Positions 11,178-57,099 are shown, counted from the first letter of the stretch. The stretch is DNA of 64,000 bases from Mobula hypostoma (GCF_963921235.1 NC_086097.1:174346001-174410000); one strand, 5' to 3'. The notes: a model not told the origin generated them from the letters alone. Made by a program: numbers and translations.

Positions 11178-11269
11178 TATGTGGAACCATTATCTCTAAG
11201 AGTTTCTCAAGATAGGAAGCAGCACATACAGGAAAGACAAGCTTAGTTTGTCATCACTATTATGATAAG

Positions 11270-11899: not shown

Positions 11900-13680
11900 C
11901 ATGAAGCAAGGAAAGACTGCTGGATTAAATTGTATTTATTTCAATGCAAGATGTCTTGACAGGTAAGGCAGATGAACTCAAGGCACGAATAGCTACATTG
12001 GAATGGGATATTGTAGTCATTACAGAAACATGCTCCAGGCTACAGGTGGGTTAGAGGGGGTGTGGGGTTGCTTTTCAATTTAAGGAGAACACGATAACAG
12101 TAGTCCAATATGAATTCATTCTGTGAGACTCTTTAGGTGAAACCGAGAAGTAAGAAGGGGGTGATCACTTTGTTGAGATTGTATCATACAGTATGCCCCC
12201 TAATTGTCAACAGGAATTAGAGGAACAGATATGCAGGGAGATTGCTCAAAGTTGCAAGAATAATAGGAAATTTTAAATTTTCTAATATAGATTGGGACTG
12301 CCAAAGATTTAGGGACTTGGATGAAGTTGAGGCTGTTAAGTGTGTACAGGTAAGTTTCGTCATGCAATATTATTGAAGGCCTTACTAGGGAAAGGGCAGA
12401 GCTTCACCTATTCTTTGGAAATGGGGCGGGACAGGTGACAGAAATGTCAGTGGGGGAGCACTTTAAGACCAATGATTATAGTTATATTAGTTTTAAGTTA
12501 GTTTTGGAAAGGGACCAATCTGGTCCTCAAGTTGAAGTTTTAAACTGGAGCAAAGGAAATTTCACTATGTTAGACATAAACTTGCATAACTTGATTGGAT
12601 TAGGTGGTTTGCAGTGAAAGGGACTTCTAGCAAGTGAAAGGCTTTTACAATTGAGATATTGAGAGTTCAAGATTTGCATGTTCCTTTTAGAGTTAAAGAG
12701 AATGCTGACAGAAGTATGGAACTCTTGATGATGAATGCTATTTAGGTTTTGGTTAAGAGAAACAAGGAGAAAAAGGTCAGGTATAGTCAGCTGTGATCAA
12801 GTGAATCTGGGAGGACTATAATGTTTGCAAGAGTATTCTGAAGAAGAAATTCTGAAGATTAGTATACTCAAGAAAGAAATCAGTAGGGCTAAAAGGGGGC
12901 ATGCGATAACTTTGGCGGAGAAGATTAAGGAGGATGCAAAGAGATCTTGTAAGTATATTAAATGAAAAAGAGTAACTAGAGAGAGACTATGGCCCCTCAG
13001 TGACTACAGGGAAAATATTTGTTTGGAACACAAACAAAATGCTGGAGGAATTCAGCAAGTCAGGCTGCATCTATGGTTGGGAATAAACCGTTGATGTTTT
13101 GGGCCGAGATCTTTCACCTAAGACCTGATGAAGGGTTTTGGCCTGAAATATTAGCTGTTTATTCTTCTGCATAGATGTTGCCTGACTTGCTGAACTCCTC
13201 TAACAGTTTGTGTGTGTTGCTCATGATTTCCAGCACCTGCAGAATCTCTATATTTATCATCTTGGTATGGTGATGCAAGAAGTGGGCAAAGTCCACAATG
13301 AGTATTTCTCCTTTCTGTGGAGAAGGAAATGAAGACTTAGGATCTTGAGATAGTTAGTGGGAATGGCTTGAGGATAGCCTGTATTACAGCAGAGGAGGTA
13401 TTGGATGTCTTAAAATGTATGAAGGCACTTAAATCTCTTGAGCCTAATCAGGTATATCAAAGAATACTCTAGGAAGTTAGAGAAGGAAGGAAGTTGGAGA
13501 AGTAATTGCGAAAGCCCCTGGCTGGGTTATATACATCATTATTAGCGGTGGGTGAAGTGCCAGAAGATGGGAGAGTGGCTAATGATACATTTTTACTTAA
13601 GGGCTGCAACGAACAACCCATGAACTATAGAGCAGTAAGCCAAATGTTTTTGGTAGGTAAGTTATTAGAGAAGACTTTGT
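11900..13680 (+). mobile_element. Degenerate CR1 LINE fragment (endonuclease and linker)
   Basis: LNCIYFNAR-like start at ~11925. ORFs 12435..12617 and 13506..13697 (GEVPEDGRVAN). Interrupted by a hairpin element at ~13027-13250. Confidence 0.8.
13027..13250. mobile_element. Older PLE-derived hairpin element with a decayed hammerhead motif
   Basis: Imperfect inverted arms AACACAAACAAAATGCTGG... / ...AACAGTTTGTGTGTGTT. CTGATGA-AGGgttttggCCT-GAAA lies at 13125-13148. Confidence 0.75.
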
Positions 13681-18970: not shown

Positions 18971-19237
18971 TATGATGTTTCTTGTTCCTAGGAGAGGAAG
19001 GAATTGTTGATAGCACGATGGAATTCTTGATGGCTCATATAAGCCTTTTATGGCTCATACAAAATATCTTGAAATATGGATGCAGTAGGAAGTTCAAGAT
19101 GTAGAAATGATGACTTAATATTTGGCTGCCTGCATATTTTTATAGCTTATGTAACATGGGGCGTGCATCCCTTTTAGAATTCTACTGTGACCAACTGCTC
19201 TCTATTTTTGTTACAGTGTGAGCATTTAACTAGCAGG

Positions 19238-19447
19238 CAACAGGAATTCTGCAGATGCTGGAAATTCAAGCAACACACATCAAAGTTGCTGGTGAACGCA
19301 GCAGGCCAAGCAGCATCTATAGGAAGAGGCGCAGTCGACGTTTCAGGCCGAGACCCTTCGTCAGGACAGAAGGGTCTCGGCCTGAAACGTCGACTGCGCC
19401 TCTTCCTATAGATGCTGCTTGGCCTGCTGCGTTCACCAGCAACTTTG
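19238..19447. mobile_element. Young non-autonomous PLE-derived hairpin element (210 bp), 14-bp TSD
   Basis: ATTTAACTAGCAGG occurs at 19224-19237 and 19448-19461. 19279-19359 is the exact reverse complement of 19369-19449 (81 bp, 9-nt loop). The sequence matches the termini of the PLE at 37566-40603. Confidence 0.93.
19334..19367 (-). ncRNA. Minimal type I hammerhead ribozyme motif (intact core)
   Basis: The - strand reads GUC CUGACGA AGG-gucucgg-CCU GAAA CG UC^GAC. It has stem I GUC/GAC, the conserved CUGANGA and GAAA boxes, a 3-bp stem II, the palindromic ACGU in place of stem III, and a GUC cleavage triplet. Confidence 0.75.
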
Positions 19448-20254
19448 ATTTAACTAGCAGGGACTGGTTGCCTGTCTGAGAGCATACTTGCTGAATAAGA
19501 AATGCTCAGTCCTCTCCAAGTTCTTCACTTGAATTTTGAAATTTGATAGTTAATTCACTGGCTTTTCTCTAGAATCTTGGAGAGAAATACTGACTCATGG
19601 GCTTGTTAATAAAGAAAATATTAAACTGTTGAAAATTTATAAGAAAACCACTGGAGAGGGAAGAATCGAAAATTAAAACCTAAATTGATGTGGGGACTGG
19701 AGGTCCTCAAGGACCTGTTTTTTTTTAAATGACAATCAGTCCTGATGTTCAGTGAAGCAATTATGTCAGGATAGTTAGCAGAGCTCTAAAAATTCAGGTC
19801 GGACAATCTGATGTATGAAAATTGTGCCATATTTATTTACATCATTGCACATAAGCATGTATTAGTTTTCCTAAATCTTTCTGTCATAGATGCTATGCGT
19901 ACTACTGTAAAATAAAGCACCATCATGACACATTATTTTAAGTGTTATCTTGACCTGCTATCCAGGAAATTGATATGCATGCAATAATCCAAATATCTGT
20001 TCCAGATCATATAGATATGATTGTCATCCCATTGTACAAGTCCATTATAGTGTGAATTATAAGTGTCAGATTGTTAGACCTCTTAAAGGAGTCATTGGCG
20101 CCACTGAAGTTGAGATGACAGACTCAAGGTTCATGACAGCACCAGACTTTAATGTGCTAATAACAGTTCTCACATGACACTAATTATTGCAAGCTGCAGA
20201 TGATACAGTTTTATGTGGGTATTGTAGTCAAAATTTGTGACCAAACTTTGACTT

Positions 20255-22710
20255 GGCTGGCTGTCCTTCTGCCTGCAAACAGGCAGAGGCTAAAGAGCAA
20301 GGCTCCAGAGATTAGGACAACAAAGAAGTAGTCACAGGAGGCAGAGGAGCAGCTACAGGATTGCTTCAAGTCGGTGTACTGGGCCATGTTCAAGGACTCA
20401 TCTGTGGATCTGAATGAATACACCATGATTGTCATTGACGTTATAAAAACAGTCATAGATGAGTGTGTCCTCACAAAATCATTTAGAGTCTTTCCCAACC
20501 AGACGCCCTGGATGAACCACGAGATCCGCAGTCTGCTGAGGGCCAGATCAGAGGCATTCAAGTACAGATTTCCCCCGCCATCCGAAGGTAGAGCATTCCT
20601 ATGAAACGGTTCGTAAACTGAAATGTCGTAAAGCGAAGAAGCAATTACCATTTATTTATATGGGAAAATTTTGTGAGCGTTCGCAGACCCAAAAATAACC
20701 TACCAAATCATGCCAAATAACACATAAAACCTAAAATAACAGTAACATATAGTAAAAGCAGGAACAATATGATAAATACACAGCCTATATAAAGTAGAAA
20801 TACTTTTCCACAATCATTGCTGGCACTTCACCAAAGCGAAAATCTCACGCAAGCACTGTTGGCAGAAACACACTCTCCAGTAACCTTTAAGCTATGAAGC
20901 TGCCAAATCATACCAAATAACATGTAAAAATACACAGCCTATATAAAGTAGAAATAATGTATGTGCAGTGTAGTATCAATTACTGGAATTGGGAAGACAG
21001 CGCAGAGCACACTGATGATGGTGTGTTAGACTGAGTCGTTGCAGGCTGGGGTGGTGCAGCTCACCCTCCAGGCCGCCGACCGATACATTGCCGTGAAGCA
21101 TGCAGGGGTCCAGCGGTAGCCGGAAGGCACACAGCACATCTTTGAGAAAAAAGCCAAAATAAACATGCTAATTAATTAGGTGCCTCCCGACACGTAATTG
21201 TCAGCCCAGATCAGTGCCAATTGCCGATTGCATCGCCTCTGATCTGGGCCGACATTAGGTGTCGAGCGGCACCTAATTAATTAGCATGTTTATTTCTGCT
21301 TTTTTTTTTAAGATGTGTTGTGTGCCTCCCAGCTACTGCTGCATCCTCTGCGAATCAGTATCTGTCCGTGGCCCGGAGGTTGGGGTGGTGGGACACTGGG
21401 GTGTCATCTCATCGTTGACTATTTCCATTAGAGCAGGCAGCTCATCTTCTCCTATGACTGCCCGCCTTGATGTCGAAGGTCGAGGTTCGTCGTCTGCTGT
21501 GGTTGATGTGGAAGGCTTGCTTGACTTCTGAGCTTCACGCATTTTTCTATCATACAGTTCTTTGTAAGCACTCAAATCATCCTGCAAATATCCCCTAAAC
21601 CTACGTACCCTTTCAAAATTAAAGTCGTACTTTATCATTGCAGCGAAAATCTCACGCAGTTGCTTCATGTTCATTTTGCTACTGCATTTGGTTTCGATTG
21701 TTATCCTTTCCTCTTCCAATTGCATCAGCTCTTCATCTATCAGTTCTTGGTCATGGGATGCCAAAACCTCTTCAACAATATCTTCGTCAGCTTCCACAAG
21801 CCAAACTCGCGTTGTCCTTACTTCATTCACCATGATCGAAACGCTTAATTATGTCTAGTTTTACGCTAAGTGTAACACCCTTACGAGCTCTTTTAGGCTT
21901 TTCCAGTACTGTACCTCAGAACTCATCTTGGAAATGGCTGCTCACAGGCAGGTGTTAAAGCAATGCCGTTCCGAATCTGGGGGAGAGCGGCTGCTCGGGG
22001 CACGCTGCCTTTTATCGCGTGCTGATATTTTTCATAACAGTGAAAACATCTTCTGTTGGCGAAAACAGGGTACTAATGTAGGTCTTTCATAACAGTAAGT
22101 TTTCGTAAAGCGAACTTTCGAAAAGCGGGAGACACCTGTATATTGACTGGCTGCATCACAGCCTGGTATAGAAACGCCGAAGCCCTTGAGTGGAAAATCC
22201 TTCAAGAGGTAGTGAATATGGTCCAGTCCACCATGGGTAAAGCCCTCCCCACCATTGAGCACAACTATACAGTGTTGTTGTTGCAGGAAAGCAGCATCCG
22301 TCATCAGGGACCCCCACCACTCAGTTCATGCTTTCTTCTCACTACTGCCATCAGGAAGAAGGTACAGGAGCTTCAGGACTCACACCTCCAGAAACAGTTA
22401 TTACCTCTCAACCATCAGGCTCTTGAACCAGAGGGGATAACTTCACTCAACAACACTTGGCCCATCATTGAACTGTTCCCACAACCTAAGGACTCACTTT
22501 TAATGACTCTTTAGCTCATATTCTCAATATTTATTGCTTATTAATTTTGTGTTTGCACAGTTTTTGTCTTTTGCACCCTGGTTGTCCACCCTGTTGGTGT
22601 GGTATTTCATTGATTCTCCTTTGGTTATTGGATTTATTCAGAATGCCTGCAAGAAAATGAATCTAAGGTGACACATTTTTATTTTGATAATAACTTTACT
22701 TTGAAAAGCA
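20255..22710 (+). mobile_element. Rex1-like LINE remnants flanking a Tigger insertion (20255-20564 and 22139-22710)
   Basis: ORF 20374.. (FPNQTPWMNHEIRSLLRAR) and ORFs 22143/22255.. (TGCITAWY, LLPSGRRYRS). Confidence 0.75.
20565..22138 (-). mobile_element. Tigger/pogo-family non-autonomous DNA transposon
   Basis: TA flanks at 20563-64 and 22139-40. TIRs CAGATTTCCCCCGCCATCCGAAGGT / reverse complement CAGGTGTCTCCCGCTTTTCGAAAGT. ORF 21333..21833 resembles the acidic Tigger transposase C-terminus (VEEVLASHDQELIDEELMQLEEER). Confidence 0.85.
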
Positions 22711-23139
22711 TTCCAGGATGTGTGTTTTGCTTGCAGAAACAAATAGAGGAACGAGTCATTCATCCCCTCACTGTATTCTGACATTTAATTGGTTCATATC
22801 TTATCTGTACATTTTTTGACCCATGTTAGTAGATGTTCAAAGAAAACCTTTCAATCTCACTTTGAAAATTTCAAGTGAAATTCAAGTGACCCAATATGCA
22901 CAGCCTTGTGTGAAGGCAGAATTAAAGATCTTGTAGGAAGTACTTCCTCTGATCACTCCTATCAGCACCTGCCCTACTTACCTTTTCCTTGCTGAAGAAA
23001 GTATTTTCCATCTACCCCATTGAATCTCTCCGTCCTGTCTTGTTTTACGGTGGTTGGCACCCAGCCTAATGGTGCGTCTACCCCATTGAATCGCTTCATT
23101 TTTTTCAAGATTAATCAATTTTCTGTAATTTAAAAAAAA

Positions 23140-23250
23140 ACAGAAAATGTTGGAACTACTCAGCAGATCATGCCACATCTGTGGGAAAAGAAACTGAGTT
23201 GGAATTTTGGGTCAAAGACCCTTCATCAGATTTCCAGCATTTGCATTCTC
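23140..23250 (-). mobile_element. Old PLE-terminus fragment with a hammerhead-like remnant
   Basis: The - strand reads CTGATGA-a-GGGTC-ttt-GACCC-AAAA, with the GAAA box mutated. Confidence 0.6.
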
Positions 23251-23699
23251 TTTGATTTTCACTCAAATTTTTTTGAATTTGAGCAATCAAATTTACACGC
23301 TGCCCCCATGGTTTAGCTCCTGAATCCTAGGTGTTGTTTCATGTTTTACTTTGCAAGTACTATTCCATGTATTATAACTAATTGATATCTATTAAACACA
23401 GACCATTGGGCTAAAGGAACATAGCACTCACCTGAAATGCACTGTGCATTTGTCTAATACTGTACAAAATCTCTGAATCAGTCTGGAACATTTCCTGCTC
23501 ACTTCCTTATGGAAGAACAATGTTCTACACTTGTATTATTCTTTGCATGATCAGGAGTCTGAGTCACTATTCAAACTGGATCACAGCTTCAAGGTACCTT
23601 GATTCCATTATTCACTTTTGATATTCATCTCTAAACACATAGAGCAGTGCAGAAAGTAACAATGTTATTCAAAGTTTCCAGCCAGGGTGAAGGTAATAA

Positions 23700-23810
23700 A
23701 CCAAGAATTTCTGCAGATGCTGGAAGTCCACACAAGGAACTCAGCAAACCAGGCAGCATCAATAGAGAGGAATAAAGGGTTGATGCCTTGTGCTGAGACC
23801 CTTCATCAGT
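23700..23810 (-). mobile_element. Old PLE-terminus fragment
   Basis: TCTGCAGATGCTGGAA...GGCAGCATC...GAGACCCTTCATCAG is homologous to 19248-19364. Confidence 0.65.
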
Positions 23811-25656
23811 GAATCTAGTTGCAAGATGACCCAGACCCATAGACAATATTCTGGATTTGAACTTACCAGGTTCCTATATAAGTGGAACTAGACATCTCTG
23901 CTTTTATACGCAAACTCTTGCAATGAAGATCAAAGTTCATTTGCCTTTCTAATTGCTGCCCTGCATATTAGTGACATGTGATTATTTCTTGTTTTCAAAC
24001 ACACTTGGGTCTCTCTTAGTCTTTCAGTCTCTGACCGTTAAAAATATATTTCTATTTATTTTACCAACTAATTATTTTTGGAGGAAACTTGAGTTGCCAC
24101 CCAAGAATACTGCTGTGATTCTAAGCACATGTCCCAATCTATCTTCAGTTCATTGGCTGGCAGTGAACGTTCTGAATGAAAAGAAAATCTTTTGTCTTTG
24201 TCTTCAGCATTTCTAGTTCGAACCCTATTTTAACCCCATAATATTCCATTTGCATCATCTTTGCATATTCACTTAGCCTGTCTGATTTCCCTTGAAGTCT
24301 CTGCACATCATTTCCCTCCATCTCAGAGGAAATCCTCCCACTATCAATTTTGTCCAGACCCCTCATTACTTTATATACTTCTGTTGGATTTCTCTTCAAC
24401 TCTCCTTCTTCTCAAAAGAAAACAGTCCCAGCCTCTTTAATCTGTCTTTGTACTTATAGTCCTTCATCAAAGGAAGCATTCGTATAAATTTTTACTGGAT
24501 TCTCTCCAATGTTCTCACATGTTTTCTATAATGTGGCAATCAGAATTCAGTCTGAACCAGTGTTTTATAAAGGTCCTTGCTCTTATACACTATGTCTCTC
24601 TTAATAAAGCACAAAGTTATCTATGTGTTATTAGCCACATTCTCAATCAGCCCTCCCTTACTTAAATGATTTGTGCACTCATGTCCAAGGTCTCACTACT
24701 CATGCATCCCTTTTAGAACATGATCCTTTATTTTATGTTGTACTTCCCCATTCTTCCTACCAGAATCATCAGCTTAGGTTTCTCTGCTTTAACTTTACCC
24801 ACTCATTCCACCTTATTTCTGTATCTTGCTACAGTCTGTTACGGTCCTCCTTACTATTCACAATTCTACCAAATCTTACTTAATTGACAATTTTACAGGA
24901 CTAGGTCATTACTACAGATTTTTTAAAAAGAAAGCCAAGGTCCATGGGAAGTGTCTGTCTTCACCTGCCTCTTGCCTGAGAAGCAGCCATTCACCATGAT
25001 CTTCAATTAGATATTACTTAGAACACCTCTTATCCATTGTTGTGCTTCACATGTACTTGAAATGCAATTATTTGCTTTATCAAAATTCACCTTATAGCTC
25101 ATGTACACCACATCAATTCTAGTACCCTTGTTGATTCCCTGTTATGTGATCCATATATTCTATCAAATTGGATAATCATAGTTTGCCCAAACTGGCTTTC
25201 CTTATGTCATTTTTTTTTATTGGCCCTGTTTCACATCAATGTTTCTAAAAGCTTTCCCATCACCACAGTTGCATTAACTGGATTATACCTTCTGGGTTTA
25301 TCTTACTCCCTTTCTCGAACTCACTGTGCTGATACTCCTTTGATGTTTAGGAATTTCCATATGTGGATATCTGAATTCTTTTAAGCTCCGAGTTCATGTC
25401 CCTCATTATTGGAGGAAATCATTTTGTCCTTCTCAAGTTCATAGCAGATAACTTATATGCAAGGAGCTGTAAGAGACTGCAGATGCATGAATATGGAGCA
25501 ACAAGAGCTGGAGGAGCTCTACAGGTAAGACAGCATTTGTGGCAGGGAAAGGAATTGTTAACATTTCAGGTCGAAACCCAAAATATTGATAGTTCCTTCC
25601 CCTTCCACAGATGCTACATGACCCACTGTGTTCTTCCAGTGGGTTGTTGGCTTATA

Positions 25657-26211
25657 CACTCAGTGGCCACTTTAGTAGATACCTCCTGTACCAAATAAAG
25701 TGGCTACTGAGTTTACGTTCATGGTCTTATGCTGTTGTAGCCCATCCACTTCAAGGTTTGACATGTTGTGCGTTCAGAGATGCTTTCTTGCAAACTACGT
25801 TGTAACGAGTGATTACTTGAGTTGCTGTCCCCTTCCTGTCAGTTTGAACCAGTCTGGCTATTCTCCTCTGACCTCTCTCATTAGCAAGGCATTTTTGCCC
25901 TCAGAATTGCCACTCACCAGATGTATTTTGGTTTGTGTACATTATTTGTGCAGTCAAGAGACTGTTGTGTATGTGAAAATCCCAGGAGATCAGCAGTTTC
26001 CAAGATACTCAAAACACCCCGTCTGGCACCAACAATAATTTTATAGTTAAAGTCAGTTAGATCACATTTCTTCTCCATTCTGATGCTTGGTCTGAGCAAT
26101 AACTGAACCTGTATACTTTATGCATTGAGTTGCTGCCACATGATTGGCTGATTAGATATTTGCATTAATGAGCAGGTGTATAGGTGTACCTAATGAAGTG
26201 GCCACTGAACA
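25657..26211 (-). mobile_element. Internally deleted Tc1-like element (MITE-like)
   Basis: TA|CACTCAGTGGCCACTTTA at the left end and TAATGAAGTGGCCACTGA at the right end. The - ORF 25914..26099 (KKCDLTDF...IVGARRGVLSILETADLLGFSHT) is a Tc1 paired-like HTH. Confidence 0.85.
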
Positions 26212-29200
26212 CGAATTGAATTTCATCTGCCATACTTTGTCTTGCAATCGCGTGTGGTGTCATGGTCGTGCCCCCACAACTTGACAGGGCTTACTGTTTA
26301 GTTCATCCTCAAATCCATTTATTTATTTATTGAGATACAGCGTGGAATAGGCCCTTCCAATCCTTCAAATGGCACTGCTCAGCATTCCTCTGATTTAATC
26401 CTAGCCTAGTCACAGGACAATGATCAGTTAACTTACCAACCTGTAGATTAATATATGGTAAAGCCAAGGTCATGGTACCAAATCCGTCGAGCACTCTACT
26501 TGCCACTTTCTACCCATCATATAAGGTTTCTCGTATCTTGTTTTCTATCTGCCAGCTAATTACTAACCCTTATCAAACATTCCATGCAGACTAACTAAAT
26601 TATCTTTTATGCAGAAGAAATGTCTTCAGGATGTTTCCTCGTGTTATTCAAAGATTCAAAGTGCATTTATTGTCAAAGAATGTATAACTTGAACAACCCT
26701 AACATGTGTTTGCTTACAGGCAGTCTCAAAGCAAGGAACCCAAAAGAACGCAGTTAAAAAAAAAATAGGACCAACCCCCAGGGGCAGTGAAAAAGAGGGA
26801 AAAAACAGAACAAATCATGCAAACAATAGAAGCAAGCAACAGCAACAGCATTCCCAACCAAATTAAGTCCTAAGATCCAAATCCCCGTACAGCCTGGCAT
26901 AGGCCCAAAGCTTTGATATACAGTTCATCATATTAATCGGGCAAATCGCTACAAGGTTCACAGACATAAAGCACAGCAGCCAGGGCAGTCTCACAGCCTT
27001 AGTGTCACGGAGAGAGGAGCCCCCAAACTAACTGGGCTGGCATTTAAATTGTACAAACCTCGCACTAGGACCTGTCCCCGCTGCGGAGAATCACTCTGGG
27101 CCTAGATTTTGCTGCCGGAGAAGTTGATCTCAACCTCATTATTTATGTATGTGTTAATGTGTATGTCAGCTAAATTGTAGATAATTCGTGCCACTTAGTT
27201 TAAGGAAATAGCATCAAACTTAAATGAGCAATTTCAATGTGACTATTAGCATATTACTGTCAAATTTCCCAGAATTTACTGTTCTTTATCAAATGATACT
27301 TATTTTGGATAGCAAAGTAGAAACTTGCTGAGTCACGTTGGCATGATATTAAAACTTAATAAATTTAGACCCAAGGGGGATTAAGCATGCATAATAAGAA
27401 AATCATGCAGAATTCAGCAGTAAACTAATGCAAACCTTTTAGGATTCAGTTAAAATTTACCACTATTTTATGGATTAAAAGTGCTGATTGGTGTGAGATA
27501 AGCAACTATTAAAATAGACAGCTCATTCTTAACAGTGGGTCGTACATTTTGTTCTGGCTGCAACTAGTTAGCTGATGCATTTCTGTGGATCATCATGACC
27601 TAGTTGATAGGAGAGAGAACTTTATAATAATAACATGTATATGTATAGTCAACTACCATCATCTGGTCTATGTTATTGAGAATAAACTGAGTGTCCTGCA
27701 TTGAATTAGATTAATTGTAATACAAATAGAACCCTGCATAGCTCCAGTCTTATACAGGAAAGGGAGAGGATTGGACAGATTGTTCTGTTTGATAAACTGA
27801 AACTGAAGATGTAGGAGAATGGTTTCAGTGCATAAATTTTACTTCCTCTATTTCATTCCTCAGACTTTTTTTTGCCATCTAATGAACATTACCATGAACT
27901 ATGTTCCAATGAATTTCTGTGTTCACCAATAAGATTTCTTTAGTTTTCTTTTAAATAAAAGAATCTGATTTTGCTTTTGGTTTGCAAAACCTAGTGCCTC
28001 TTGAAACTGATGGGCTTGGTGTGCTGGAAGTTTGGCTCACCTCACCATTTATGCATGAAACACATTTTTAATGACACTTTAGATGCTATTTTATTGAATT
28101 TAGATTGGCTATATTTATCACAGTTCTTAAAGGGAGGCACCTTCTGTGATCAAAGAGGACAGAGTGGTGCAGGGAACTTTAGCTTCAAACTCAGTTATAA
28201 AATGAAGTGAGTGAGATGAGTTTATTCTAGCAGCTCAAGTAAAATGCTTTCAGAAGCAATGGCTGTTAGATTTATTTTTACCTTAGCATGATTAATACTT
28301 TACTTAATTTCTCAATATTTGTTTTTGTTTACGGGAAAGCTGAAAGCACCCAAATCAGTTGATAAATTTAAAGCTCTTTTGTGGTAGTTTAGAGTAACAT
28401 AATGCAGGATGAACCCAAATTATATGCAAGTATTTTCCTGCTATTATTTAGTAGGCTAGCTGTTGTTAATTCAGGTTTTCCAGAAATGCTTATTATCCCA
28501 GGAGGCCTGAAAACAAAGTTATTTTCTATTCAGGCACAGGGTGAAGGTGTCAGTGCTGGACCAGTACATAATGCTCCTCTTTAATTACCCCTCAGAAGGT
28601 AGTGGTAAGCTCTCATCTTGATCAACTGTAGTTCTTACACTATGGATGTTCCCAGATTGATATTGGATAGGGAGTTGTAAGATTTTGATCAGTGATATGT
28701 ATTTCCTTGTATGTGACTTGGAAAGGATTGTATGGATAGTAGTGTTCCTACACATAGGGAGTCATTGTCCTTTGATCGAGTTTACAGGTCTGGAAGATGC
28801 TTTCAAAATAGTTTTGCGAAGTTGCTGTAATGCACTTTCTAAGTGTGGCTGCTGCTATGTGCCAGTGTTGGAAGAAGTGACTATTTATGCTGTTCAAGTG
28901 GGCTGATTTGTCCTGTTTCAATAGTAAACATTTGACAATACTATCCCTTTTCTAGTTCTGACTACGTTATTGAGATGAAAACAAGTAGAACTTGTAATTA
29001 CAGAATATAGTATGTAACATTGAAATACATTATGTAGAATCATCTGTGGCACTGAAGGGGGGTTAGTTGCCAAATTGTGTTCTTGCCAAACAAAATTGAA
29101 CTCATTAATTTTGACCCTATTTTTACTGAGTCCATAGACTTAGAAGTTACAGAAACCCTTTCTCATGTTTATATTGACCTTCATTGAAACTCTGTTAGAG

Positions 29201-29439
29201 AGCAAAGAGAGGGCAGAATATGATTTGAATGAAGAATTAAATTGCTAGGCATAAGTGCAGGTTTTCTGCAAATTAATTGATTTCTTCAAGAGGGGACCAC
29301 ATATGAATAACAAATGCAGAACACTAAATTGAAAGAGATTTTGGTGACTTAATACTTTACCCAGAAGGTGTGTTTGGAGCCCTGGATAACAATTTAAAAA
29401 GAGAAATAAAAGAACAAGCTTTGATTCTTCTGTTGAATG

Positions 29440-30770
29440 GGAAAATACAGGAAAAGGGTAGTGGGTCTTGCTATGAGAAGCATGAAGCAGGACATTATGA
29501 AGGGAACAGGAAATAGAGAGGGGACAGGTAGATGTGCCTGGTAGTTGCATTATACTGAGGGTGACTAATTATATGTGAGGGCTTGTGAGTTGGAAGGTGA
29601 AGAAAAGGATAACTATAATCTTGTATTTGCTGGGAGGAAAGTGAGTGAGAGCGGAAGTGCAAGAAATAAACAGCCATGGCCGAGTGCCCTCTCAGCTATG
29701 CTGGACAGGGAACCATTGCTGAGGATAAAGGAAAGATGTGGGAAGCACTGGCATGTAAGATGTCAATGTCAGAACAGATATGGTGCAGCCATGGATACGA
29801 TGAGAACAGACTGGAATCCTTATAAGAAATAGCATGGGATTAGGTGAAGTCACATTCGGTGTAGGAGTCAATACAATTGAATAGATATCTGACATTAATG
29901 TGTCTCATGAGATGGAGAAGGAAGTGAGGAAGGGAAGGAAGGAGCCAGACACTGACATTTGAAAGTGAGGGCATGATGTACTGTAATCAGTAGGAAAGAA
30001 GTTGGTATTTTATGTTGCAGTTGTACAAGATGTTGGTGAGGCTGCATTTGGAATATTGTGTTCAGTTTTGATGATTCTGCTATCAGACAGATGCTATTAA
30101 GGTGGAAAGAGTGCAGAGGATATTTACAAGCATATTGCTGGTTCTCGAGAGACTGAGTTAAGTAGAGAGGTTGAGTAGATTGGGACTTTACTCATAGGAG
30201 AATGAGTGGTGAGAATATAGAGGTTTATAAAATCATGAGGGGCAAAGATAGAATGAATGTGCATAGTTTTTCCCCCAGAGTTGAGAAATTAAGAACGAGG
30301 GGGCGTCGGTTTATGGTGAGAGGGGAGAGATTTAATTGGAACCTGAGGGGCAACTTTTCCACCGAGAAGGTGGTCGGTGTATGGAATGAGCTGCCAGAGG
30401 AAGTGTAGTTAAGAAGACAATAAAGTGCAAGGCCATAACAAGGTAGATTATAAGATCATTTTATTGCACAAGAGGTCCATTCCAATAATCTTATAATACT
30501 GGGATTAAAAACTGTCCTTAAGCCTGTGGTATGTGATTTTTCAACTTATTTTAAAATCTTCTGCCTGACAGGAGGGGGGGATTATGGATTCCAGTAACAG
30601 AACCCTCTTTTCAGAGAAGATGAATGAAGTTAAAGACTAAGTTGTTCAGTATGAGAGTTTAGCTAGAAAATATGTTTGATGGATGGGTGCTAAGTTGGTC
30701 CGCTGTTCAAGGAAGAAGCAGAGGGTCCCTTCAGACCAAGTGTTGTAGGATGGAGGTAAAGAGACTAGAA
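29440..30770 (-). mobile_element. Ancient decayed PLE, interrupted by a CR1 fragment (~30000-30410, +) and another LINE tail
   Basis: The reverse complement of 30585-30770 resembles the RT segment SLYTSI...LAELVLTLNNFSF seen intact at 38860-39010. ORF 30202..30408 is a CR1 C-terminus. Confidence 0.5.
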
Positions 30771-31759
30771 TTTAATCTTTTTGGCATAAATAACCTTGAG
30801 TACTTAACAATAAATCCAACAGTTCCAGAACTTTAGCCTTTCCAGTCAGTAATTTCTAAAATGTATGCATACTGGCAGAACAACGTATCCTAATTGCCTT
30901 TAGATAGTGCCCACCTTCTTGAATTGGTGTACTACTTTCTCGTGGTGGTCTTCTCACAATGCTAATAGAGAAGGAGTTTAGGAGCTGGAACCAGTGATGG
31001 AGTAATTTGTGTTTCTCAGTCAGAATGATGTGCAGCTTGGGGGGAATCTAGAAGTTGTGTTCACATGTGGCTACAACCCTGATTTTTCTAGGTGGAAGAT
31101 ACTGTTTGCATGATCTAAGCAATTCATGCACTTTATAGGTGCATGACTCTCTCCTGATTTGTGCTTTGCAGTGGGAGAAAGGTTTTGTGATGTCAGGACA
31201 TAAATAGCAGGATATCCATCCTCTGAGCTGCTCTTATAGTCCTCATAGTTAAGTATTTGGTTCAGGAACTTCTGGTTGCTGGTGACCACCAGGATGTCGA
31301 TGAAGGGGGCTCGGTGCTGGTAATGCCATTGAGTATGGAGAGTAGATGATTAGACACTTGTTTGAGATGGTAATTTTCTAATAATTTGGTGGCATGAAAT
31401 CTGCTCGTCTCCAATTTTTGGAAGCCTATGTCTGAATGTTGTCTAGGTCCTGTTGCAGACATGCATTTTGTTTGGGCTCATCCACTCATAATAAATATTA
31501 ATATTTTGATGAAGTAATGTCTCTAGTTATGCAATTGACACAAAGTTGAATGGAGTGATAGGTGTTTGCAGAGAGCCACCAGAGTGATTTGATCCAGTTG
31601 AATGACTTGGTTGATATTATTAAAAAATAACAGTCAAAGCAGAAAAGCAGATGATAATTTGACTGGAGAGGTACTAAGATATGGGAGGCGCAGTGAGACC
31701 TGGATGTTCTTGTGCATCTATCTTTGAAAGTAAGCATACAAATATAGCAGATATAATTT

Positions 31760-34550
31760 TCAATCCACATAGACTGTGGACTTCTGGTGAGGAAGTTGAA
31801 GCAGGTATAGATGCCCAGGTTTTGGAGCTTTTCCGTAAGATCATAAGAATAGGAGCAGAATTAGGCCATTAGTCTGCTGCACCATTTCATCATGGCTGAT
31901 CCAATTTTCCTCTCAGCCCCAATTTCCTGCCTTCTCCTTGTATCCCTTCATATGCTGACCAATCAAGAATCTATCAACCTCTGCTTTAAATATACAGAAA
32001 GACTTGGCTTCTACGGCTACCTGTGGCAAAGAATTCCACAGATTCACCACTCTCTGTCTAAAGAAATTCCTCCTCATTTCTGTTCTAAAAGGACATCCCT
32101 CTATTCTGAGGTGATAGCCTCTGATCTTAGGCTCACCCACCATAGAAAATATCCTCTCCAGATCCACACTATCAAGGCCCTTTCACCATTCGATAGATTT
32201 CAATGAGGTCATCCCTCATTCTTATGAATTTCAGTGAAGACAGGCCCAGAGCCATCAAACGCTCTTCATATGACAAGACATTCAATCCTGGAATCATTTT
32301 TGTGAACCTTCTTTGAACCCTCTCCAGTAACAGTGCATCATATTTAAGATAAGGGGCCCAAAACTGCTCTCAATACTCCAAGTGAAGCCTCACCAGTGCT
32401 TTATAAAGTCTCGACATTACATCCTTACTTTTATATTCTAGTCCTCTTGAAATAAATGATAACATCGTATTTGCCTTCCTCACCACAGACTCAACCTGTA
32501 AATTAACCTTTAGGGAATCCTGCACAAGGACTCCCAAGTCCCTTTGCGTCTCACTTTGTTGTATTTTCTCTCCATTTAGAAAATAGTCAACCCTTTTATT
32601 TCTTCTACCAAGTGCATGACTATACACTTCCCGACACTGTATTCCATCTTTCATTTCTTTGCATATTCTCCTAATCTATCTTAGTCCTTCTGTTGCCTCT
32701 CTACTTCCTTAGAATTACTGGCCCCTTGACTTATCTTCATATCGTCTGCAAACTTTGCAACAAAGCCATCAATTCCATCATCCAAATCATTGACATATTG
32801 CGTAAAAAGAATCGGTCCCAACATAGACCCCTGTGGAACACCACTAGTCACTAGCAGCCAATCAGAAAAGGCTTCCTTAATTCCTGCTCTTTGCCTGCTG
32901 CCAATTAGCCACTGCTTTATCCATGCTAGAATCTTTCTTGTAATACCATGGGCTCGTAGCTTGTTAAGCAACCTCATGTGTAGCACCTAGAGAGCCTATG
33001 AGATGGCTTTTTAGAGCAGCTCATAATTGAACCCACTAGGGGATCAGCTATTCTAGATTAGGTGTTGTGCAATGAACCGGGATTAATTAGAGAGTTTAAG
33101 GCAAAAGAACCCTTAGGGGAAAGTGATCATAATGTGATCGAATTCACCCTGAAATTTGAGAAGGATAAGCTAATGTCAGATGTATCAGTATTACAGTGAA
33201 GTAAAGGGAATTACAGAGACATGAGAGAGGAGTTGCAAGAATTGATTGGGAAAGAATACTGGCAGGGATGATAAGAGAACAGCAACGTCTGGAATTACTG
33301 GAAGCAATTTGGAAGGCACAGGGTATATACATCCCAAAGAGGAAGAAGTATTCTAAAGACAAGATGACATAACTGTGGCTTACAAGAGAAGTCAAAGCCA
33401 ACATAAAAGCCAAAGAGAGGGCATGTAATAGAGCAATAATTAGTGTGAAGTTAGGGGATTGGGGAGCTTTTAAAAACCACCAGAAGGCGACTGAAAAAGT
33501 CATTAAGAAGGTAAAGATGGAATATGAAAGTAAGCTAGCCAATAATATTAAAGTGGATACCAAAAGTTTCTTCAGATACGTTAAGTGTAAAAGAGAGGTG
33601 AGAATAGATATCTGACTGCTGGAAGATGATGCTGGAGAAGTAGTAATGGGGGACAAAGAAATGTTGGATGAACTGCATAAGTATTTTGCATCAGTCTTCA
33701 AGACAATTAGCAGTATGGTGGCAGTTCCAGGTGTCAGGGCCCTGGAGTGTGTGAAGTTACCATAACTGAAGAGAAAATTCCTTGGAAACTGAAAGGCCTG
33801 AAGTTAGATAAGTCACCTGGGCCAGATGGTGTACACCCCAGAGTTCTGAAAGAGGTGGATGAAGAGATCGTGGCGGCATTAGTAATGATTTGTCAAGAAT
33901 CACTAGATTCTGGAATAGTTCCAGAAGACTGGAAATTGCAAATGTCACTCCACTCTTCAAGGAGGGAGAGAGGCAGAAGAACGGAAACTATAGGCCTTTT
34001 AGTCTTCCCAACCTCAGTGGTTGGAAAGATGTTAGAGTCGATTATTAGGGATGAGGTCTCAGGGTACTTGGAGGCTTATGATAAAATGGATCATAGTTAA
34101 CATGGTTTCCTCAAGGGAAAATCTTGCCCAACAAATCTGTTGGAATTTTTCGAAGAAGTAACAAACAGGATAGACAAAGGAGAATCATTTAGCAGGGGAT
34201 TTTCATCAGAACTGTAGTAATTATTGTGTTAAATGCTGAGCTGTTGTCAATAAAAAGCAGCTTTTCATAAGTTTTAGTATTGTCCAGGTGATCCAGGACT
34301 GTGTGAAGAGCCAATGAAATCGCATCCTCTGTAGGCCTATTGTGGCAATAGGCAAATTCTAGTGGGTCCACGTCCTTGGTTAGCCAGGAGTTGATTCTAG
34401 TCAACAAAAACCTCTTGAAGCACTTCATCATTGTAGGTGTGAGTACTACTGGACAATGGTCATAAAGGCAGCGCATCCTGCTCTTCTTGGACACTGATAT
34501 GATTGTTGCCCTTTAGAAGCAGTTTGGTACTTTGAACTGTAGCAATGAAT
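31760..34550 (-). mobile_element. Rex1-like LINE fragment split by a rearranged CR1 (Rex1 parts 31760-31835 and 34195-34550)
   Basis: ORF 34189..34494 (PVVLTPTMMKCFKR, LFIDNSSAFNTI) continues across the insertion as KLQNLG...NFLTRSPQS at 31830-31770. Confidence 0.75.
31836..34187. mobile_element. CR1 LINE with 5' inversion: 31836-32988 (-) RT to 3' tail, 32989-34187 (+) endonuclease end to RT start
   Basis: The - ORFs are 32681..32986 (SGVPQGSMLGP, KFADD), 32370..32654 and 31913..32167. The + ORF is 33747..34100 (KSPGPDGVHPRVLKE). The two pieces are adjacent parts of one ORF2 in opposite orientation. Confidence 0.88.
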
Positions 34551-36339
34551 TAGTAAATCCTTCAGATCCCAATTAAACCCCAATCCATTTTTAATTAATT
34601 TATTTTTCAAGTTTCCCAGTGAAGGAAGATTGGGAAGTTAAGTGAGAATATGACAATTGGGGCTTAGCAGATCTGGAGGGAGTGTGGGGAACTGTAGCTT
34701 GGTGAATAAAAGTGAGCATTGGAATCATGGCCCTGCAAGGCAGCAGAGAGCATAGAAACAGGGTCTCAGTGAGTTGTAGAGAATACGGAAAGGTGGCACT
34801 CCCAGTGAGTGGAAGGGAGTGTAGGACTGAGCCAGGGCTGTCAGAATGGGGCATTGGAACTGGGGCCCTGGTGAAGCAGAAAGGAGCGTGGATACCTGGC
34901 ACCTGGTGAATAGTAGTGAGGTGTGGCTATTTCTGCTTGGGATTGTTTTCACTGAAGTTTCAAAGAATGAGAAGGAATTTTAATGAAATTGTTGGCCATT
35001 TTGGAGAATTGTGTATAGTTCTGGTCATCACAGAATAGGAAAGATTCAATTAAGCAAGAGAAGGTGCAGGGGAGTCACAAAGATGTTGCCAAGATTAGAG
35101 AACTTGGAAAGGGGTGAAAATGAGAAACTAGGTAGGCTGGATCTGTTTTCTCTAATGTAAATGAGGCTGAATGGTGACATTTTAGAGGTATAGAAAATTG
35201 AGAGGCATATTTAGGGTAGATGGCCAGTGTTAGTTTCATAGCAGACTCATCTGCTCATGAATGAATTTCAGATTCTAACTGCAGTTTATCTCAGATCTGT
35301 GCAAAGTGATTCCTTTGTCCATGTGATGTCATAACTGGGAGATGCGCTCCTTTCTGAGATGGTCTCCATTCCATTTCTGCAGCCCTTAGGTGACTGAGGT
35401 CAATATGGGATCCGCAGACAGCTGTGGGTGTGTGGTGCACTTGGTGGGTTGGATGAAGTGGGTACTTTGGTAAGTGGTGTGTTTCTTCCATTGCTTCCAC
35501 TCGGCTTCTCTCTGCTCTTGATCATGAATTCAAAGTTTTTATGTTCAATCTAAATTTTCAGAACTAAGGTTACTCTAAAGCCTTTGAGCTTGGACTCTGA
35601 TACTTGCGTAAATGTGTCTGAGGTTGGAGTAACCTTGGTTCTCAATTGGAGGCAACATAGTTTGAACAGTTGGCTATCAGACTTGTATAGTTTATCTTTA
35701 CCCCAGTAGCAAGCTTGTTGGCATTGTGATGAGAGATATGGCAAAGTGCTGGGTCAGTATTGTGCCCTAACTTAGCTGTACCAAGATTAGATATATTTAG
35801 AACCAATGGTTAGAATCATGAAGCAAGTATGAGATAGAGATGAATTTATGCAGGACACCGGATTTGAGAGGGGTACTCAAAGTTCCTCACAACTGTTGGG
35901 GTCAAAACATTTAGTGGTGTCTAAAAAGACCATGTGTACTGTTTTGGTGCTGCTCCCTGCTTTTCTTGGAGTTACTGTATATTGAAGTTATCTCCACTGT
36001 TTCTCTTGACAGACTGAATGCACACTGCATTTTGAGTAGTAGTTCTGCATCCACGGGGGGGTGGGGAGAGGAGAGGTTGAGAAGGATCCTGGGAAGATTT
36101 GCAAAGAACAGTCAGATTTGTTTCTTTCATAATGGCAATTACAGTAATTGTGTCTCTAATGTTCTCAGACCTGTTGTCTTCTTCCTGATGAGGGAGATGA
36201 GATAGAATTCTGTCAACATTAGGGTTTAGAACTTTAGTAAGAATATCACATATAAGTATAGTATGGTTGGATGCATTTTGTGTTTAATGATAGATAACTG
36301 ACAATGTAATGGCACACTGCTGTCTCAACTTTTGTTGGT

Positions 36340-36610
36340 GGATGTTGTTTTTGTGGAGTTTGCACATTCTCTCTCGGACCCTGTGGGTTTCTCTAGATGC
36401 TCTAGTTTTCTCATTGATTGGTAGGTTAATTGTGCACTGTAAATAAGGTGGCGATAGAATTGGGAGTTGATGGCCATTTGAAATAACAAAATAAGAAGAG
36501 TGTAGGGTTGGTGTAAGTGGGTGCTTGATAGCTATCACAATTAGACTGAATAGTCTGTTTGTTTGGCCAAATTATCTTTGTCTGTGCTGTATAGCTTTTT
36601 GACTCTATCC
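36340..36610 (+). mobile_element. Degenerate V-SINE-like element
   Basis: TGTGGAGTTTGCACATTCTC...TGTGGGTTTCTCTAGATGCTCTAGTTT core and a CR1-like tail GTGCTGTA...GACTCTA. Confidence 0.55.
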
Positions 36611-37665
36611 AGCTGATGAAACTGAACAACATTTTGTTTCAGTCCTATATTAATTTTGCTAACTCTTTTTGTATCTTGTTTATTTTATTTTGTTATTCAT
36701 TAAGATTTTAGAATTATATTAAAATCTGTAGTGAGGATACATTTAAAATTAAAAAAGATTTGCTGTTTATTGCTAAATCATAAACCGTAATTGGTTTAAT
36801 AGATATTTCATGTTGTCGACGTTTATTCTGTTGGTGGGATGGTGTGCGTAGGATAACTACGGTATTTTGTAAGGGTAAATTTCCTAATTTTAAACAAATT
36901 CCACTGTTTTCACAGTCTTTCCTCAAGGAGCCATTCAACAAATGAATTCAGTTGCATTTGACTCCCAATTGACAAGCCATTTTTCAGCGTTAATGAAGTG
37001 TAATTAGAAACAGCAATAGATGCAAGCATTTTCTTGCTGAAATGATGAATGCTTATGCACACCATGTTTTTCATAAAGCACTCTATTCTGAGCAATGACT
37101 AAATGGCAAAAAAAATTTATTTATGTGCCAATGATTTAAAACTTAGCATATAATTACCTTTTAAGCAGTGTAAGACTCTAAGTCACTGATCTTGTAAAAT
37201 GGTTTACACAATGCTGTGCCAAATCAAAAGATGATTGTTAGGGTAGTGTGTTAAACATAATTAAAACCGGTTTGTTCTAAATCTACTCTTTGGAAATATT
37301 GTCCAGTTTGTTAGTTTGGGGAGCTATCACGTTTTAACTGCTATTTTGATAAGTGCTTCTTTGGCTGAAAGATACTTAGCGATATAAAAAGAGTGAAAAG
37401 TACATAGTAAATAGCCTTTTATTAAAATAACTACATCATTGTGACCTGCTTTCATTTTTGTCAAAACTCTTAGATTTTCAGTCAGTTCATTTTCCCATGT
37501 GAATGTCTCAACTCTTGTGCCTGCCATTCGATGGGTGTGGTAGGAAGAGAAAGGTTGGATTAATTTGCAAACAACAGGAATTCTGCAGATGCTGGAAATT
37601 CAAGCAACACACATCAAAGTTGCTGGTGAACGCAGCAGGCCAGGCAGCATATCTAGGAAGAGGTA

Positions 37666-37703
37666 CAGTCGATGTTTCAGGCTGAGACCCTTCGTCAGGA
37701 CTA
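37666..37703 (-). ncRNA. Minimal hammerhead ribozyme motif in the PLE terminal repeat (inverted arm)
   Basis: The - strand reads UAGUC CUGACGA AGG-gucucag-CCU GAAA CA UC^GACUG. Stem I is 5 bp including one U-G pair and the core is intact. The ACGU palindrome has changed to ACAU. Confidence 0.7.
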
Positions 37704-38541
37704 ACTGAAGGAAGAGTGAGTAAGAGATTTGAAAGTGGGAGGGGGAGGAGGAGATCCAAAATGATAGGAGAAGACAGGAGGGGGAGGGATGGAGCCAAGA
37801 GCTGGACAGGTGATTGGCAAAGGGAATATGAGAGGATCATGGGACAGGAGGCCCGGGGAGAAAGACAAGGGGGGGGGAACCCAGAGAATGGGCAAGGGGT
37901 ATAGTCAGAGGGGCAGAGGGAGAAAAAGGAGAGTGAGAGAAAGAATGTGTGTATAAAAATAAATAACGGATGGGATACGAGGGGGAGGTGGGGCATTAGC
38001 AGAAGTTAGATAAGTCAATGTTCATGCCATCAGGTTGGAGGCTACCCAGATGGAATATAAGGTGTTCCTCCAACCTGAGTGTGGCTTCATCTTTACAGTA
38101 GAGGAGGCCGTGGATAGACATGTCAGAATGGGAATGGGATGTGGAATTAAAATGTGTGGCCACTGGGAGATCCTGCTTTCTCTGGTGGACAGAGCGTAGG
38201 TGTTCAGCAAAGTGGTCTCCAAGTCTGCATCGGGTCTCGCCAATATATAGAAGGCCACATCGGGAGCACCGGACGCAGTATATCACCCCAGCCGACTCAC
38301 AGATGAAGTGTCGCCTCACCTGGAAGGACTGTCTGGGGCCCTGAATGGTGGTAAGGGAGGAAGTGTAAGGGCATGTGTAGCACTTGTTCCACGTACAAGG
38401 ATAAGTGCCAGGAGGGAGGTTGGTAGCAGTGGATGGGAGATCCCCTGAGTGGATAAAGTCGGTGATGGTGTGGGAGAAAATGGCCTGATGCTGCTTAGTG
38501 GGGTCACGATCGAGGGGTAAATAAGAGGAGGTATCCGCGAG

Positions 38542-40206
38542 TTGTCGCTGTGCCACACCATCACCGACTTTATCCGCTCAGGGGATCTCCCATCCACTGC
38601 TACCAACCTTATAGTTCCCACACCCTGCACTTCCCATTTCTACCTCCTACCCAAGATCCACAAACCTGCCTGTCCTGGCAGACCTATTGTCTCAGCTTGC
38701 TCCTGCCCCACTGAACTCGTTTCTGCATACCTCAACACGGTTTTATCCCCCCTTGTTCAATCCCTTCCTACCTATGTTCGTGACACTTCTCACGCTCTTA
38801 AACTTTTCGATGATTTTAAGTTCCCTGGCCCCCACCGCTTTGTTTTCACCCTGGATGTCCAGTCCCTATATACTTCCATCCCCCATCAGGAAGGTCTCAA
38901 AGCTCTCTGCTTCTTTTTGGATCCCAGACCTAATCAGTTCCCCTGTACCACCATTCTGCTCCGTCTGGCGGAATTAGTCCTTACTCTTAATAATTTCTCC
39001 TTTGGCTCCTCCCACTTCCTCCAAACTAAAGGTGTAGCTATGGGCATCCATATGGGTCCTAGCTATGCCTGCCTTTTTGTTGGCTTTGTGGAACAATCTA
39101 TGTTCCGTACCTATTCTGGTATCTGTCCCCCACTTTTCCTTCGCTACATCGAAGACTGCATTGGCGCTGCTTCCTGCACGCATGCTGAGCTCATTGACTT
39201 TATTAACTTTGCCTCCAACTTTCACCCTGCCCTCAAGTTTCCCTGGTCCATTTCCGACACCTCCCTCCCCTTTCTAGATCTTTCTTTCTCTATCTCTGGG
39301 GACAGCTTATCCACTGATGTCTACTATAAGCCTACTGACTCTCACAGCTGTCTGGACTATTCCTCTTCTCACCCTGTCTCTTGCAAAAATGCCATCCCCT
39401 TCTCGCAATTCCTCCGTCTCCGCCGCATCTGCTCTCAGGATGAGGCTTTTCATTCCAGGACGAGGGAGATGTCCTCCTTTTTTAAAGAAAGGGGCTTCCC
39501 TTCCTGCACCATCAACTCTGCTCTCAAACACATCTCCCCCATTTCACGCACATCTGCTCTCACTCCATCCTCCCGCCACCCCACTAGGAAAAGGGTTCCC
39601 CTTGTCCTCACCTACCACCCCACCAGCCTCCGGGTCCAACATATTATTCTCCGTAACTTCCGCCACCTCCAACGGGATCCAATCACTAAGCACATCTTTC
39701 CCTCCCCCCCCCCCCTTTCCGTAGGGATCGCTCCCTACGTGACTCCCTTGTCCATTCGTCCCCTCCCATCCCTCCCCACTGATCTCCCTCCTGGCACTTA
39801 TCCTTGTAAGCGAAACAAGTGCTACACATGCCCTTACACTTCCTCCCTTACCACCATTCAGGGCCCCAGACAGTCCTTCCAGGTGAGGCAACACTTCACC
39901 TGTGAGTCGGCTGGGGTGATATACTGCGTCTGGTGCTCCCGATGTGGCCTTCTATATATTGGTGAGACCCGACGCAGACTGGGAGACCGCTTTGCTGAAC
40001 ACCTACGCTCTGTCCACCAGAGAAAGCAGGATCTCCCAGTGGCCACACACTTTAATTCCACATCCCATTCCCATTCTGACATGTCTATCCACGGCCTCCT
40101 CTACTGTAAAGATGAAGCCACGCTCAGGTTGGAGGAACACCTTATATTCCATCTGGGTAGCCTCCAACCTGATGGCATGAACATTGACTTATCTAACTTC
40201 TGCTAA
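38542..40206 (+). pseudogene. PLE ORF (RT plus Cys-rich linker plus GIY-YIG endonuclease), N-terminally truncated, catalytic motif altered
   Basis: FYLLPKIHKP, GRPIVS, LDVQSLYTSI, KGVAMG, RYIED (YIDD expected), FLDL, YYKPTD; linker CKRNKCYTC; GVIYCVWCSRCGLLYIGETRRRLGDRFAEH. Confidence 0.93.
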
Positions 40207-40505
40207 TGCCCCACCTCCCCCTCGTATCCCATCCGTTATTTATTTTTATACACACATTCTTTCTCTCACTCTCCTTTTTCTCCCTCTGTCCCTCTGACTA
40301 TACCCTTTGCCCATCCTCTGGGTTCCCCCCCCCCTTGTCTTTCTCCCCGGACCTCCTGTCCCATGATCCTCTCATATCCCCTTTGCCAATCACCTGTCCA
40401 GCTCTTGGCTCCATCCCTCCCCCTCCTGTCTTCTCCTATCATTTTGGATCTCCCCCTCTCCCTCCCCCTCCCACTTTCAAATCTCTTACTAACTCTTCCT
40501 TCAGT

Positions 40506-40543
40506 TAGTCCTGACATAGGGTCTCGGCCTGAAACGTCGACTG
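40506..40543 (+). ncRNA. Hammerhead motif in the PLE 3' terminus, core mutated
   Basis: UAGUC CUGACAU AGG-gucucgg-CCU GAAA CG UC GACUG: CUGACGA has become CUGACAU (G8 and A9 lost). Confidence 0.65.
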
Positions 40544-57080: not shown

Positions 57081-57099
57081 TCAGTAGTTGTATTGTCAC

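Follow-up and report, generated by a model that had tools for sequence, protein, structure and literature searches.

What the short, SINE-like (short interspersed element) repeat in a 64,000-nucleotide stretch of Mobula hypostoma DNA (GCF_963921235.1 NC_086097.1:174346001-174410000; hereafter the window, numbered from its first letter) might be, and whether the ribozyme that it seems to contain shapes the RNA from which it is copied, are the questions raised by this locus. A preliminary description of the window had proposed a minimal hammerhead ribozyme in the termini of a Penelope-like element (PLE) and of its short hairpin derivatives. The function of PLE hammerheads is still debated, and more than 86,000 near-identical termini in this genome provide a test bed for reading template starts and ends from DNA alone. 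The analysis leads to the conclusion, held with a probability of nearly 0.9, that the motif is a minimal hammerhead located in the pseudo-long terminal repeat (pLTR) of a young, massively amplified Neptune-type PLE, here family A, and of at least three older sister lineages, and that the templates copied are mostly uncut.

The intact family A copy lies at 19334..19367 on the minus strand and reads GUC-CUGACGA-A-GGGUCUCGGCCU-GAAA-CG-UC^GAC. Its parts are stem I, CUGACGA, an unpaired A, stem II (GGGU/GCCU), GAAA, an ACGU palindrome and C17, so that the core elements CUGANGA, GAAA and NUH are all present. The earlier reading of this segment as hammerhead-like, with a predicted cut between 19337 and 19336, agrees with this layout. 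Its pairing of stem II as AGG/CCU is replaced by an unpaired A followed by GGGU/GCCU around a CUCG loop, which fits better (-7.7 vs -6.3 kcal/mol). Minimal hammerheads of metazoan PLEs were described in 2014, and their consensus, CUGANGA-H-G and onward, fixes the stem II register as an unpaired A and then GGGU/GCCY, which supplies both the unpaired base after A9 and the opening G10.1 (Cervera and de la Pena, 2014, PMC4209133). Stem III is a palindrome able to pair only in a dimer; it is ACGU in the consensus sequences of families A and B and has decayed at its CpG in that of family O. Judged by its sequence, 19334-19367(-) is a minimal type I hammerhead that matches the published PLE consensus (PMC4209133).

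The host element is indicated by an open reading frame (ORF) beside two further copies of the motif, at 38521..40206 (+), which spans 561 codons and lacks its N-terminus. This single frame carries reverse transcriptase (RT; Pfam RVT_1, below cut-off) and, at its C-terminus, a GIY-YIG endonuclease (Pfam, above cut-off), and the two are joined by a CX4CX2C linker, CKRNKCYTC, at residues 429-437. A zinc-finger-like CX2-5CxxC linker between RT and endonuclease marks the Neptune and Nematis clades (PMC8557442), and the motif points to a host of Neptune type. Among named proteins the closest matches are from rays, at 73-89% identity; sharks follow, and then corals and molluscs at around 50%. Compared with the window frame, family B proteins show 69-75% identity and one family O copy 39-52%. 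The order in the natural long copies L073 and L079 is hammerhead, tail, ORF start. The motif thus lies between the 3' untranslated region and the 'tail' and, in tandem copies, upstream of the next ORF, which begins more than 100 nt past the cut site; this is the pLTR location. The adjoining RT and GIY-YIG frame, the pLTR position and the published consensus together bear out the proposal of a PLE-borne minimal type I hammerhead whose palindromic stem III forms only in a dimer. Two side observations concern coding. A short frame runs through the hammerhead of the long copies (L073:1-130, L079:30-130) from a codon in CUGA(C/U)GA to a stop in the tail, opening with AUG in CUGAUGA lineages and ACG in family A, and it resembles the anole ORF start at stem II. 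In addition, two public ray gene models named after host genes (P0002 and P0004) include long stretches of element protein, which suggests exonisation or mis-annotation.

The very high copy number that had been expected from the window was found throughout the 3.48-Gb genome. The exact 34-mer occurs 36,060 times (17,985+18,075; reversed control 0) and a 30-base anchor just downstream of the motif 86,430 times, while an anchor in the RT region occurs 3,069 times, a ratio of 3' termini to RT region of about 28:1. A loose hammerhead pattern that excluded family A loops was discarded as count evidence because its 419 matches compare with 406 in the control; it was used only to reveal families B and C among the 100 matches listed. 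Family C (L175:1390-1650, L351 and L352; three matches) is a rare, unrelated hammerhead family whose stem II has 7 bp. Two of its three copies have a TATA-like box some 39 nt ahead of CUGA, and a link to a PLE ORF would be conjectural.

The structure of individual insertions was read from 100 family A copies chosen by the downstream anchor regardless of the hammerhead. They are 5'-truncated, have target-site duplications on either side and often form head-to-head pairs that use one 3' site per arm. Their 3' ends are bimodal: measured from the cut, 57 lie at about +65 and the other 43 at about +102, and each of ten close head-to-head pairs combines one short with one long end. In an anole element, a pair of internal sites at which RT starts accounts for the optional tail (PMC11167929), and published descriptions of PLE insertions treat the inverted arrangement as typical (PMC3846280, PMC8557442); the hairpins are therefore ordinary PLE insertions and no separate family. 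Partial tandems that form pLTRs, copies in inverted orientation, a tail of 30-40 bp that may be absent, and target-site duplications are all features of endonuclease-bearing (EN+) PLEs. The impression of an anonymous SINE, with short hairpin derivatives as a kind of their own, does not survive this comparison, since the copies are standard 5'-truncated head-to-head insertions and the short hairpins are the smallest pairs. Neither a Pol III head nor a fixed 5' end was found in the short copies, which have target DNA or an inverted copy upstream, and Rfam returned no tRNA, 5S or 7SL match in the window. That the short and hairpin units form an independent SINE- or retrozyme-like family with its own master would account for the excess of 3' termini over RT-region copies and for the many short copies that share a 5' end near -32; it is nevertheless very improbable, because hairpin apexes vary from copy to copy, short and long copies have the same diagnostic variants and the same two 3' ends, and no private 5' head is held in common. 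Separately, L150, L038 and other listed copies have lost stem II by deletion between two GAA words, as if reverse transcriptase had skipped the hairpin.

Whether the ribozyme prepares the copied RNA can be read from the 5' ends of these insertions. After one partner had been dropped from each of ten hairpin pairs, the unbiased sample held 90 events, with 5' ends per base per copy of 0.025 at -35..-29, 0.017 at -28..-21, 0.006 at -3..+2 and 0.002-0.004 elsewhere. When the search was narrowed to enrich junctions from -40 to +18, 13,403 matches came back, and the first 100 comprised 51 inverted and 45 simple junctions, with four dropped for internal indels. Twenty of the 45 simple junctions fall at -33..-31 (P about 7e-13, scanning-corrected), compared with two at -1..0 (P=0.45 vs even spread). 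Measured from the cut, the peak thus lies 31-33 nt upstream, where stem I begins and a conserved pyrimidine-tract/YAG is found. Short- and long-tailed copies both show it, so it is set by sequence and not by length. In families B and O, 7 of about 17 truncated copies (63 fetched) start at -35..-28, as do 6 of the 9 window copies, both judged by eye. Flanks differ and the duplication often abuts the junction, which indicates independent insertions with no common upstream exon; the idea of a spliced template was rejected on these grounds. Junctions between -12 and +18 (2,959 matches; 30 rows by script, the remainder by eye) show no peak at 0, and those at a GCA microhomology near +4 are as frequent as those on GTCGAC.

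Copies that include the ORF start extend this result. Among the first 100 of 526, scored by eye, 51 extend beyond -55, 20 stop somewhere from -53 to +3, and the other 29 stop further downstream; ten rows (eight events) end at -34..-25 and none at 0. Seventeen of the 51 read-through copies were fetched, and their extents, from -65 to at least -1256, form no second cluster. The missing pile-up at the cut site and the ORF-bearing read-through together imply templates that are mostly uncleaved and longer than one unit, with only a partial stop at stem I. That broken-off copies stop at the front edge of the ribozyme rather than at its cut suggests that the copied RNA is usually uncut.

A different expectation follows from the model of Cervera and de la Pena (2014), in which the hammerhead actively cuts unit-length or circular RNAs from tandem transcripts and these are the main retrotransposition templates. 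The core and stem I are conserved across lineages, a few insertions (L103, L230) start exactly at the cut, and a tandem array of 310-bp units exists (L350), as this model would have it. The simple junctions at the cut do not exceed an even spread, however, none of 71 informative ORF-start copies begins at 0 (by eye), the junctions of the array lie away from the cut, and uncut RNA is the main substrate in the anole element (PMC11167929), so that cleaved templates as the main source are improbable. The array itself (L350; G000:C2:157816300-157818100, -) consists of 310-bp family A units inside a target-site duplication, each with hammerhead, tail and first ORF codons, which differ only at one CpG, in alternating order. 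Its four junctions are all at -34, right after CAG. With a complete hammerhead in each unit it appears retrozyme-like and fits that definition, and it may derive from a circular template or from DNA duplication. Back-splicing was considered and rejected as its origin; the acceptor would suit, yet just one of three comparable copies has a GT donor after the end of the unit.

At the peak, families A, B and O share a pyrimidine tract with YYAGUCC after it. We take YYAGUCC to be readable both as an initiator (Inr) and as a splice acceptor. A local hairpin is computed to span about -47 to -17. In D. virilis, an intron follows the start after 46 bp (PMC2377424), and its end coincides with helix I (PMC4209133). 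The peak could mark a minor RNA 5' end at the Inr-like YYAGUCC or, with a similar chance somewhat short of even, a stop or release of reverse transcriptase at the pyrimidine-tract/YAG, caused by bound factors or the local hairpin; nicking at TTA is an unlikely third cause. A broader proposal, offered tentatively, is that one class of RNA has a discrete 5' end within the opening bases of stem I, probably a pLTR transcription start at YYAGUCC, and that RT run-off there, from the internal start sites close by, mass-produces the SINE-like and hairpin units of about 100-135 bp, which make up roughly a tenth of family A copies. Cleaved RNA would then almost never be copied, and the junctions of tens of thousands of copies would be a genomic record of templates. 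If so, one class of transcripts would begin with the ribozyme itself, which would serve as a switch that decaps or silences element RNA and not as a template-maker.

The pattern of conservation bears on whether the motif is kept as a ribozyme. Core, stems and palindrome are retained in 46 of 100 family A copies, with mismatches concentrated at CpG. When the consensus sequences of A, B and O are compared, the motif has 31 identical columns out of 37, against 5 of 36 on the upstream side and 4 of 16 immediately downstream. Variation is seen at N7 and in loop II, and the invariant positions are exactly the catalytic ones. At the closing pair of stem I, scored by eye in all 84 of 84 matches of a degenerate pattern, C-G occurs 43 times, U-A 26, U-G 10 and C-A 5, and the U-A of the older lineage in place of C-G is one inherited compensatory change. 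A difference in mismatch between core and flank within family A (3/550 vs 26/1,265, P=0.02) was not trusted because the flanks include subfamily variants. The preliminary description had stem II re-pairing with different sequences in different copies; a few inherited lineage differences uphold this in part, while most differences between copies are decay. For this reason a covariation test across copies is weak and lineages must be compared.

Several points weigh against the interpretation favoured here. Self-cleavage of the hammerhead is a prediction only. Computed folds formally allow the active dimer, yet at -11.5 kcal/mol it is not lowest in energy: a pair of inactive monomers reaches -22 and the best-scoring dimer -30.3. 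Family A stem II is closed by G-U instead of G-C in 40 of 55 copies, position 11.1 being U where the family B consensus has C. Rfam searches of the window and the motif returned no hammerhead at the gathering score, nor at E<=10. The conservation check proposed earlier came out mixed: the core is kept between lineages, but the downstream hairpin and tail are conserved between families as well (45/74 columns), so that conservation is not unique to the ribozyme. In a covariation check on 35 copies, the number of double-changed pairs is no higher than in shuffles, 95 of 500 of which attain it, which is what dead copies would be expected to show, and the stem I C-G/U-A change counts as only one inherited event. 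Three insertions among the first 100 matches of the enriched junction search are hairpins centred on the GTCGAC palindrome that spans the cut, which cleavage could also yield. The sampled copies were the first listed matches, mostly from one chromosome arm, and the Neptune assignment was drawn from one linker motif, shared with Nematis, and not from a tree.

Some of these points would also suit a motif retained chiefly as a signal for a promoter, a splice acceptor or protein binding, with no catalysis left in the young family. The computed monomer is an inactive rod that sequesters the core, stem II has its G-U closing pair, a pyrimidine tract and YAG are conserved directly upstream in A, B and O, the D. 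virilis intron ends at helix I, and the cut site leaves no footprint. Loss of catalysis is nonetheless rather unlikely, given that constraint falls on exactly the catalytic positions and leaves N7 and loop II free, that a stem I pair has been compensated, that cichlid, frog and coelacanth motifs with a G-U closing pair have been published (PMC4209133), and that the anole ribozyme looked inactive until protein was added (PMC11167929). The computed preference for the rod over the active dimer is in line with the low or protein-dependent activity reported for such ribozymes.

A mechanism consistent with mostly uncut templates can be outlined. The element protein would nick target DNA, and reverse transcription would start at the two internal sites, as extrapolated from the anole PLE. 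The template would usually be uncleaved RNA of more than one unit. Alone, the ribozyme would be unable to form stem III and the monomer would adopt the inactive rod, with probably weak cleavage as a dimer or with protein help. Nearly all genomic copies would be inert by-products, and selection would act on a few master elements.

The window itself illustrates how such copies decay. All nine places listed in the preliminary description hold motif-like sequence, of which one is intact and one, at 51435, is of doubtful membership. The intact hammerhead belongs to a fold-back PLE insertion at 19238..19449 (-), with 81-bp arms at 19279-19359/19369-19449, its apex at the start of stem I (-31), a long tail on just one arm and a 12-bp target-site duplication (19226..19237 and 19450-19461). 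Because this copy lies in an 81-bp perfect inverted repeat (RNA hairpin -182 kcal/mol), its hammerhead would be buried as RNA; Rfam microRNA matches reflect only this perfect hairpin and were set aside. The frame described above lies in a 5'-truncated PLE at 37566..40603, in which an inverted 3' copy (~37566-38473, -) is joined head-to-head to a forward copy (~38553-40603, +) between 13-bp duplications at 37553-37565 and 40604-40616. Both of its termini carry hammerheads, as had been listed, but neither is whole: that of the inverted terminus at 37666..37703 (-), with a long tail, has its palindrome ACGU mutated to ACAU, and that of the forward terminus at 40506..40543 (+), with a short tail, has a CUGACAU core that has lost G8 and A9.

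The remaining copies are older or more damaged. An older family O fold-back insertion at 13027..13245 (+), with its apex at stem I, keeps the core and GAAA on a decayed 3' side. A decayed copy at 23194..23237 (-), assigned by eye, resembles the oldest lineage, D, with stem II GGGUC/GACCC and GAAA lost, and a decayed family O copy at 23709..23808 (-) begins at CUGA and has likewise lost GAAA. The doubtful one at 51428..51471 (-) has core-like words and a possible AAG/CUU stem; blastn found no family similarity there, and none downstream of the core-like words. At 61931..61969 (-), a scrap joins an inverted tail to stem I, CUGAUGA and half of stem II and stops before GAAA. A family O terminus at 63131..63315 (+) has a pyrimidine tract upstream and a broken core (GUGAGGA, AAAA at 63218). 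The bare pattern CTGANGA-N8-30-GAAA matches 12 times in the window against 6.2 expected, a marginal excess that 2 of 100 shuffles reached.

Other mobile elements share the window. An L1-like element at 44057-49122 (-) has ORF1 (Pfam Transposase_22) and pieces of ORF2 (RVT_1, zf-RVT) in several frames. A Tc1-like DDE transposase fragment forms a long fold-back at 9527-11201, with a related piece at 1-181. A short inverted repeat adjoining a 171-codon frame without a Pfam match, at 21106-21848, is presumably a DNA-transposon remnant. Many decayed long interspersed element (LINE) reverse-transcriptase fragments, which we take to be CR1-like, lie at 828-1845, 5378-7362, 33711-34100, 57051-58357 and 62194-63036.

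Compared with known systems, the motif class, dimer model, tail and inverted units are already published. The motif shares with the minimal hammerheads of metazoan PLEs the type I layout, CUGANGA-H, a stem II opening with G, GAAA, a two-base palindromic stem III and NUH, together with a short stem I, a U-rich 5' flank, the pLTR location, mostly solo truncated copies and nearby opposite-strand pairs (PMC4209133). The Acropora Neptune hammerhead in the alignment of that study has the same layout. Stem II is short here, 4 bp and closed by G-U, unlike the usual form. No cartilaginous fish is among the species in Table S1 and Fig. S3 of the same study, and its descriptor-found motifs number about 4,000 in coelacanth and 9,000 in Xenopus, against 36,060 identical 34-mers here. 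In the mostly open literature that was searched, hammerheads of cartilaginous-fish PLEs appeared only in a preprint of 2026, which has one such species among those covered for tandem retrozymes. The find thus mainly adds a lineage, probably rays, and an extreme copy number.

Animal non-LTR retrozymes are likewise PLE-derived, hammerhead-bearing and non-coding, and the L350 array fits them (bioRxiv 10.64898/2026.07.22.740005); the window copies, solo or inverted, are not tandem units that each hold a complete hammerhead. The head-to-head arrangement, tail at one end only, target-site duplications and junction palindromes are those of canonical EN+ PLE units (PMC3846280, PMC8557442), beyond which junctions are counted here and cluster at the 5' edge of the hammerhead. 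The tendency of broken-off copies to stop at this front edge, and not at the cut site, appears to be the new detail; no account of junction clustering at stem I was found in the literature searched, and coverage over the anole template in Supplementary Fig. S2 of PMC11167929 may show something similar. That template is PAc, a Poseidon element of Anolis carolinensis, whose ribozyme needs protein, whose ribozyme mutants still insert and whose cut site yielded no reads (Frangieh et al., 2024, PMC11167929). Both elements have a hammerhead upstream of two 3' sites that give an optional tail, and in both the main template is uncleaved RNA, in vitro for PAc and as read from DNA here. They differ in that the linker here indicates a Neptune and not a Poseidon element, in that ribozyme activity is here a prediction, and in that the long ORF begins after the tail, where that of PAc begins at stem II. 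In the copies analysed here, junctions are in sharp excess 31-33 nt before the cut but not at it, and the upstream ribozyme is read through; these copies lend genomic support to an in vitro result obtained on one lizard element.

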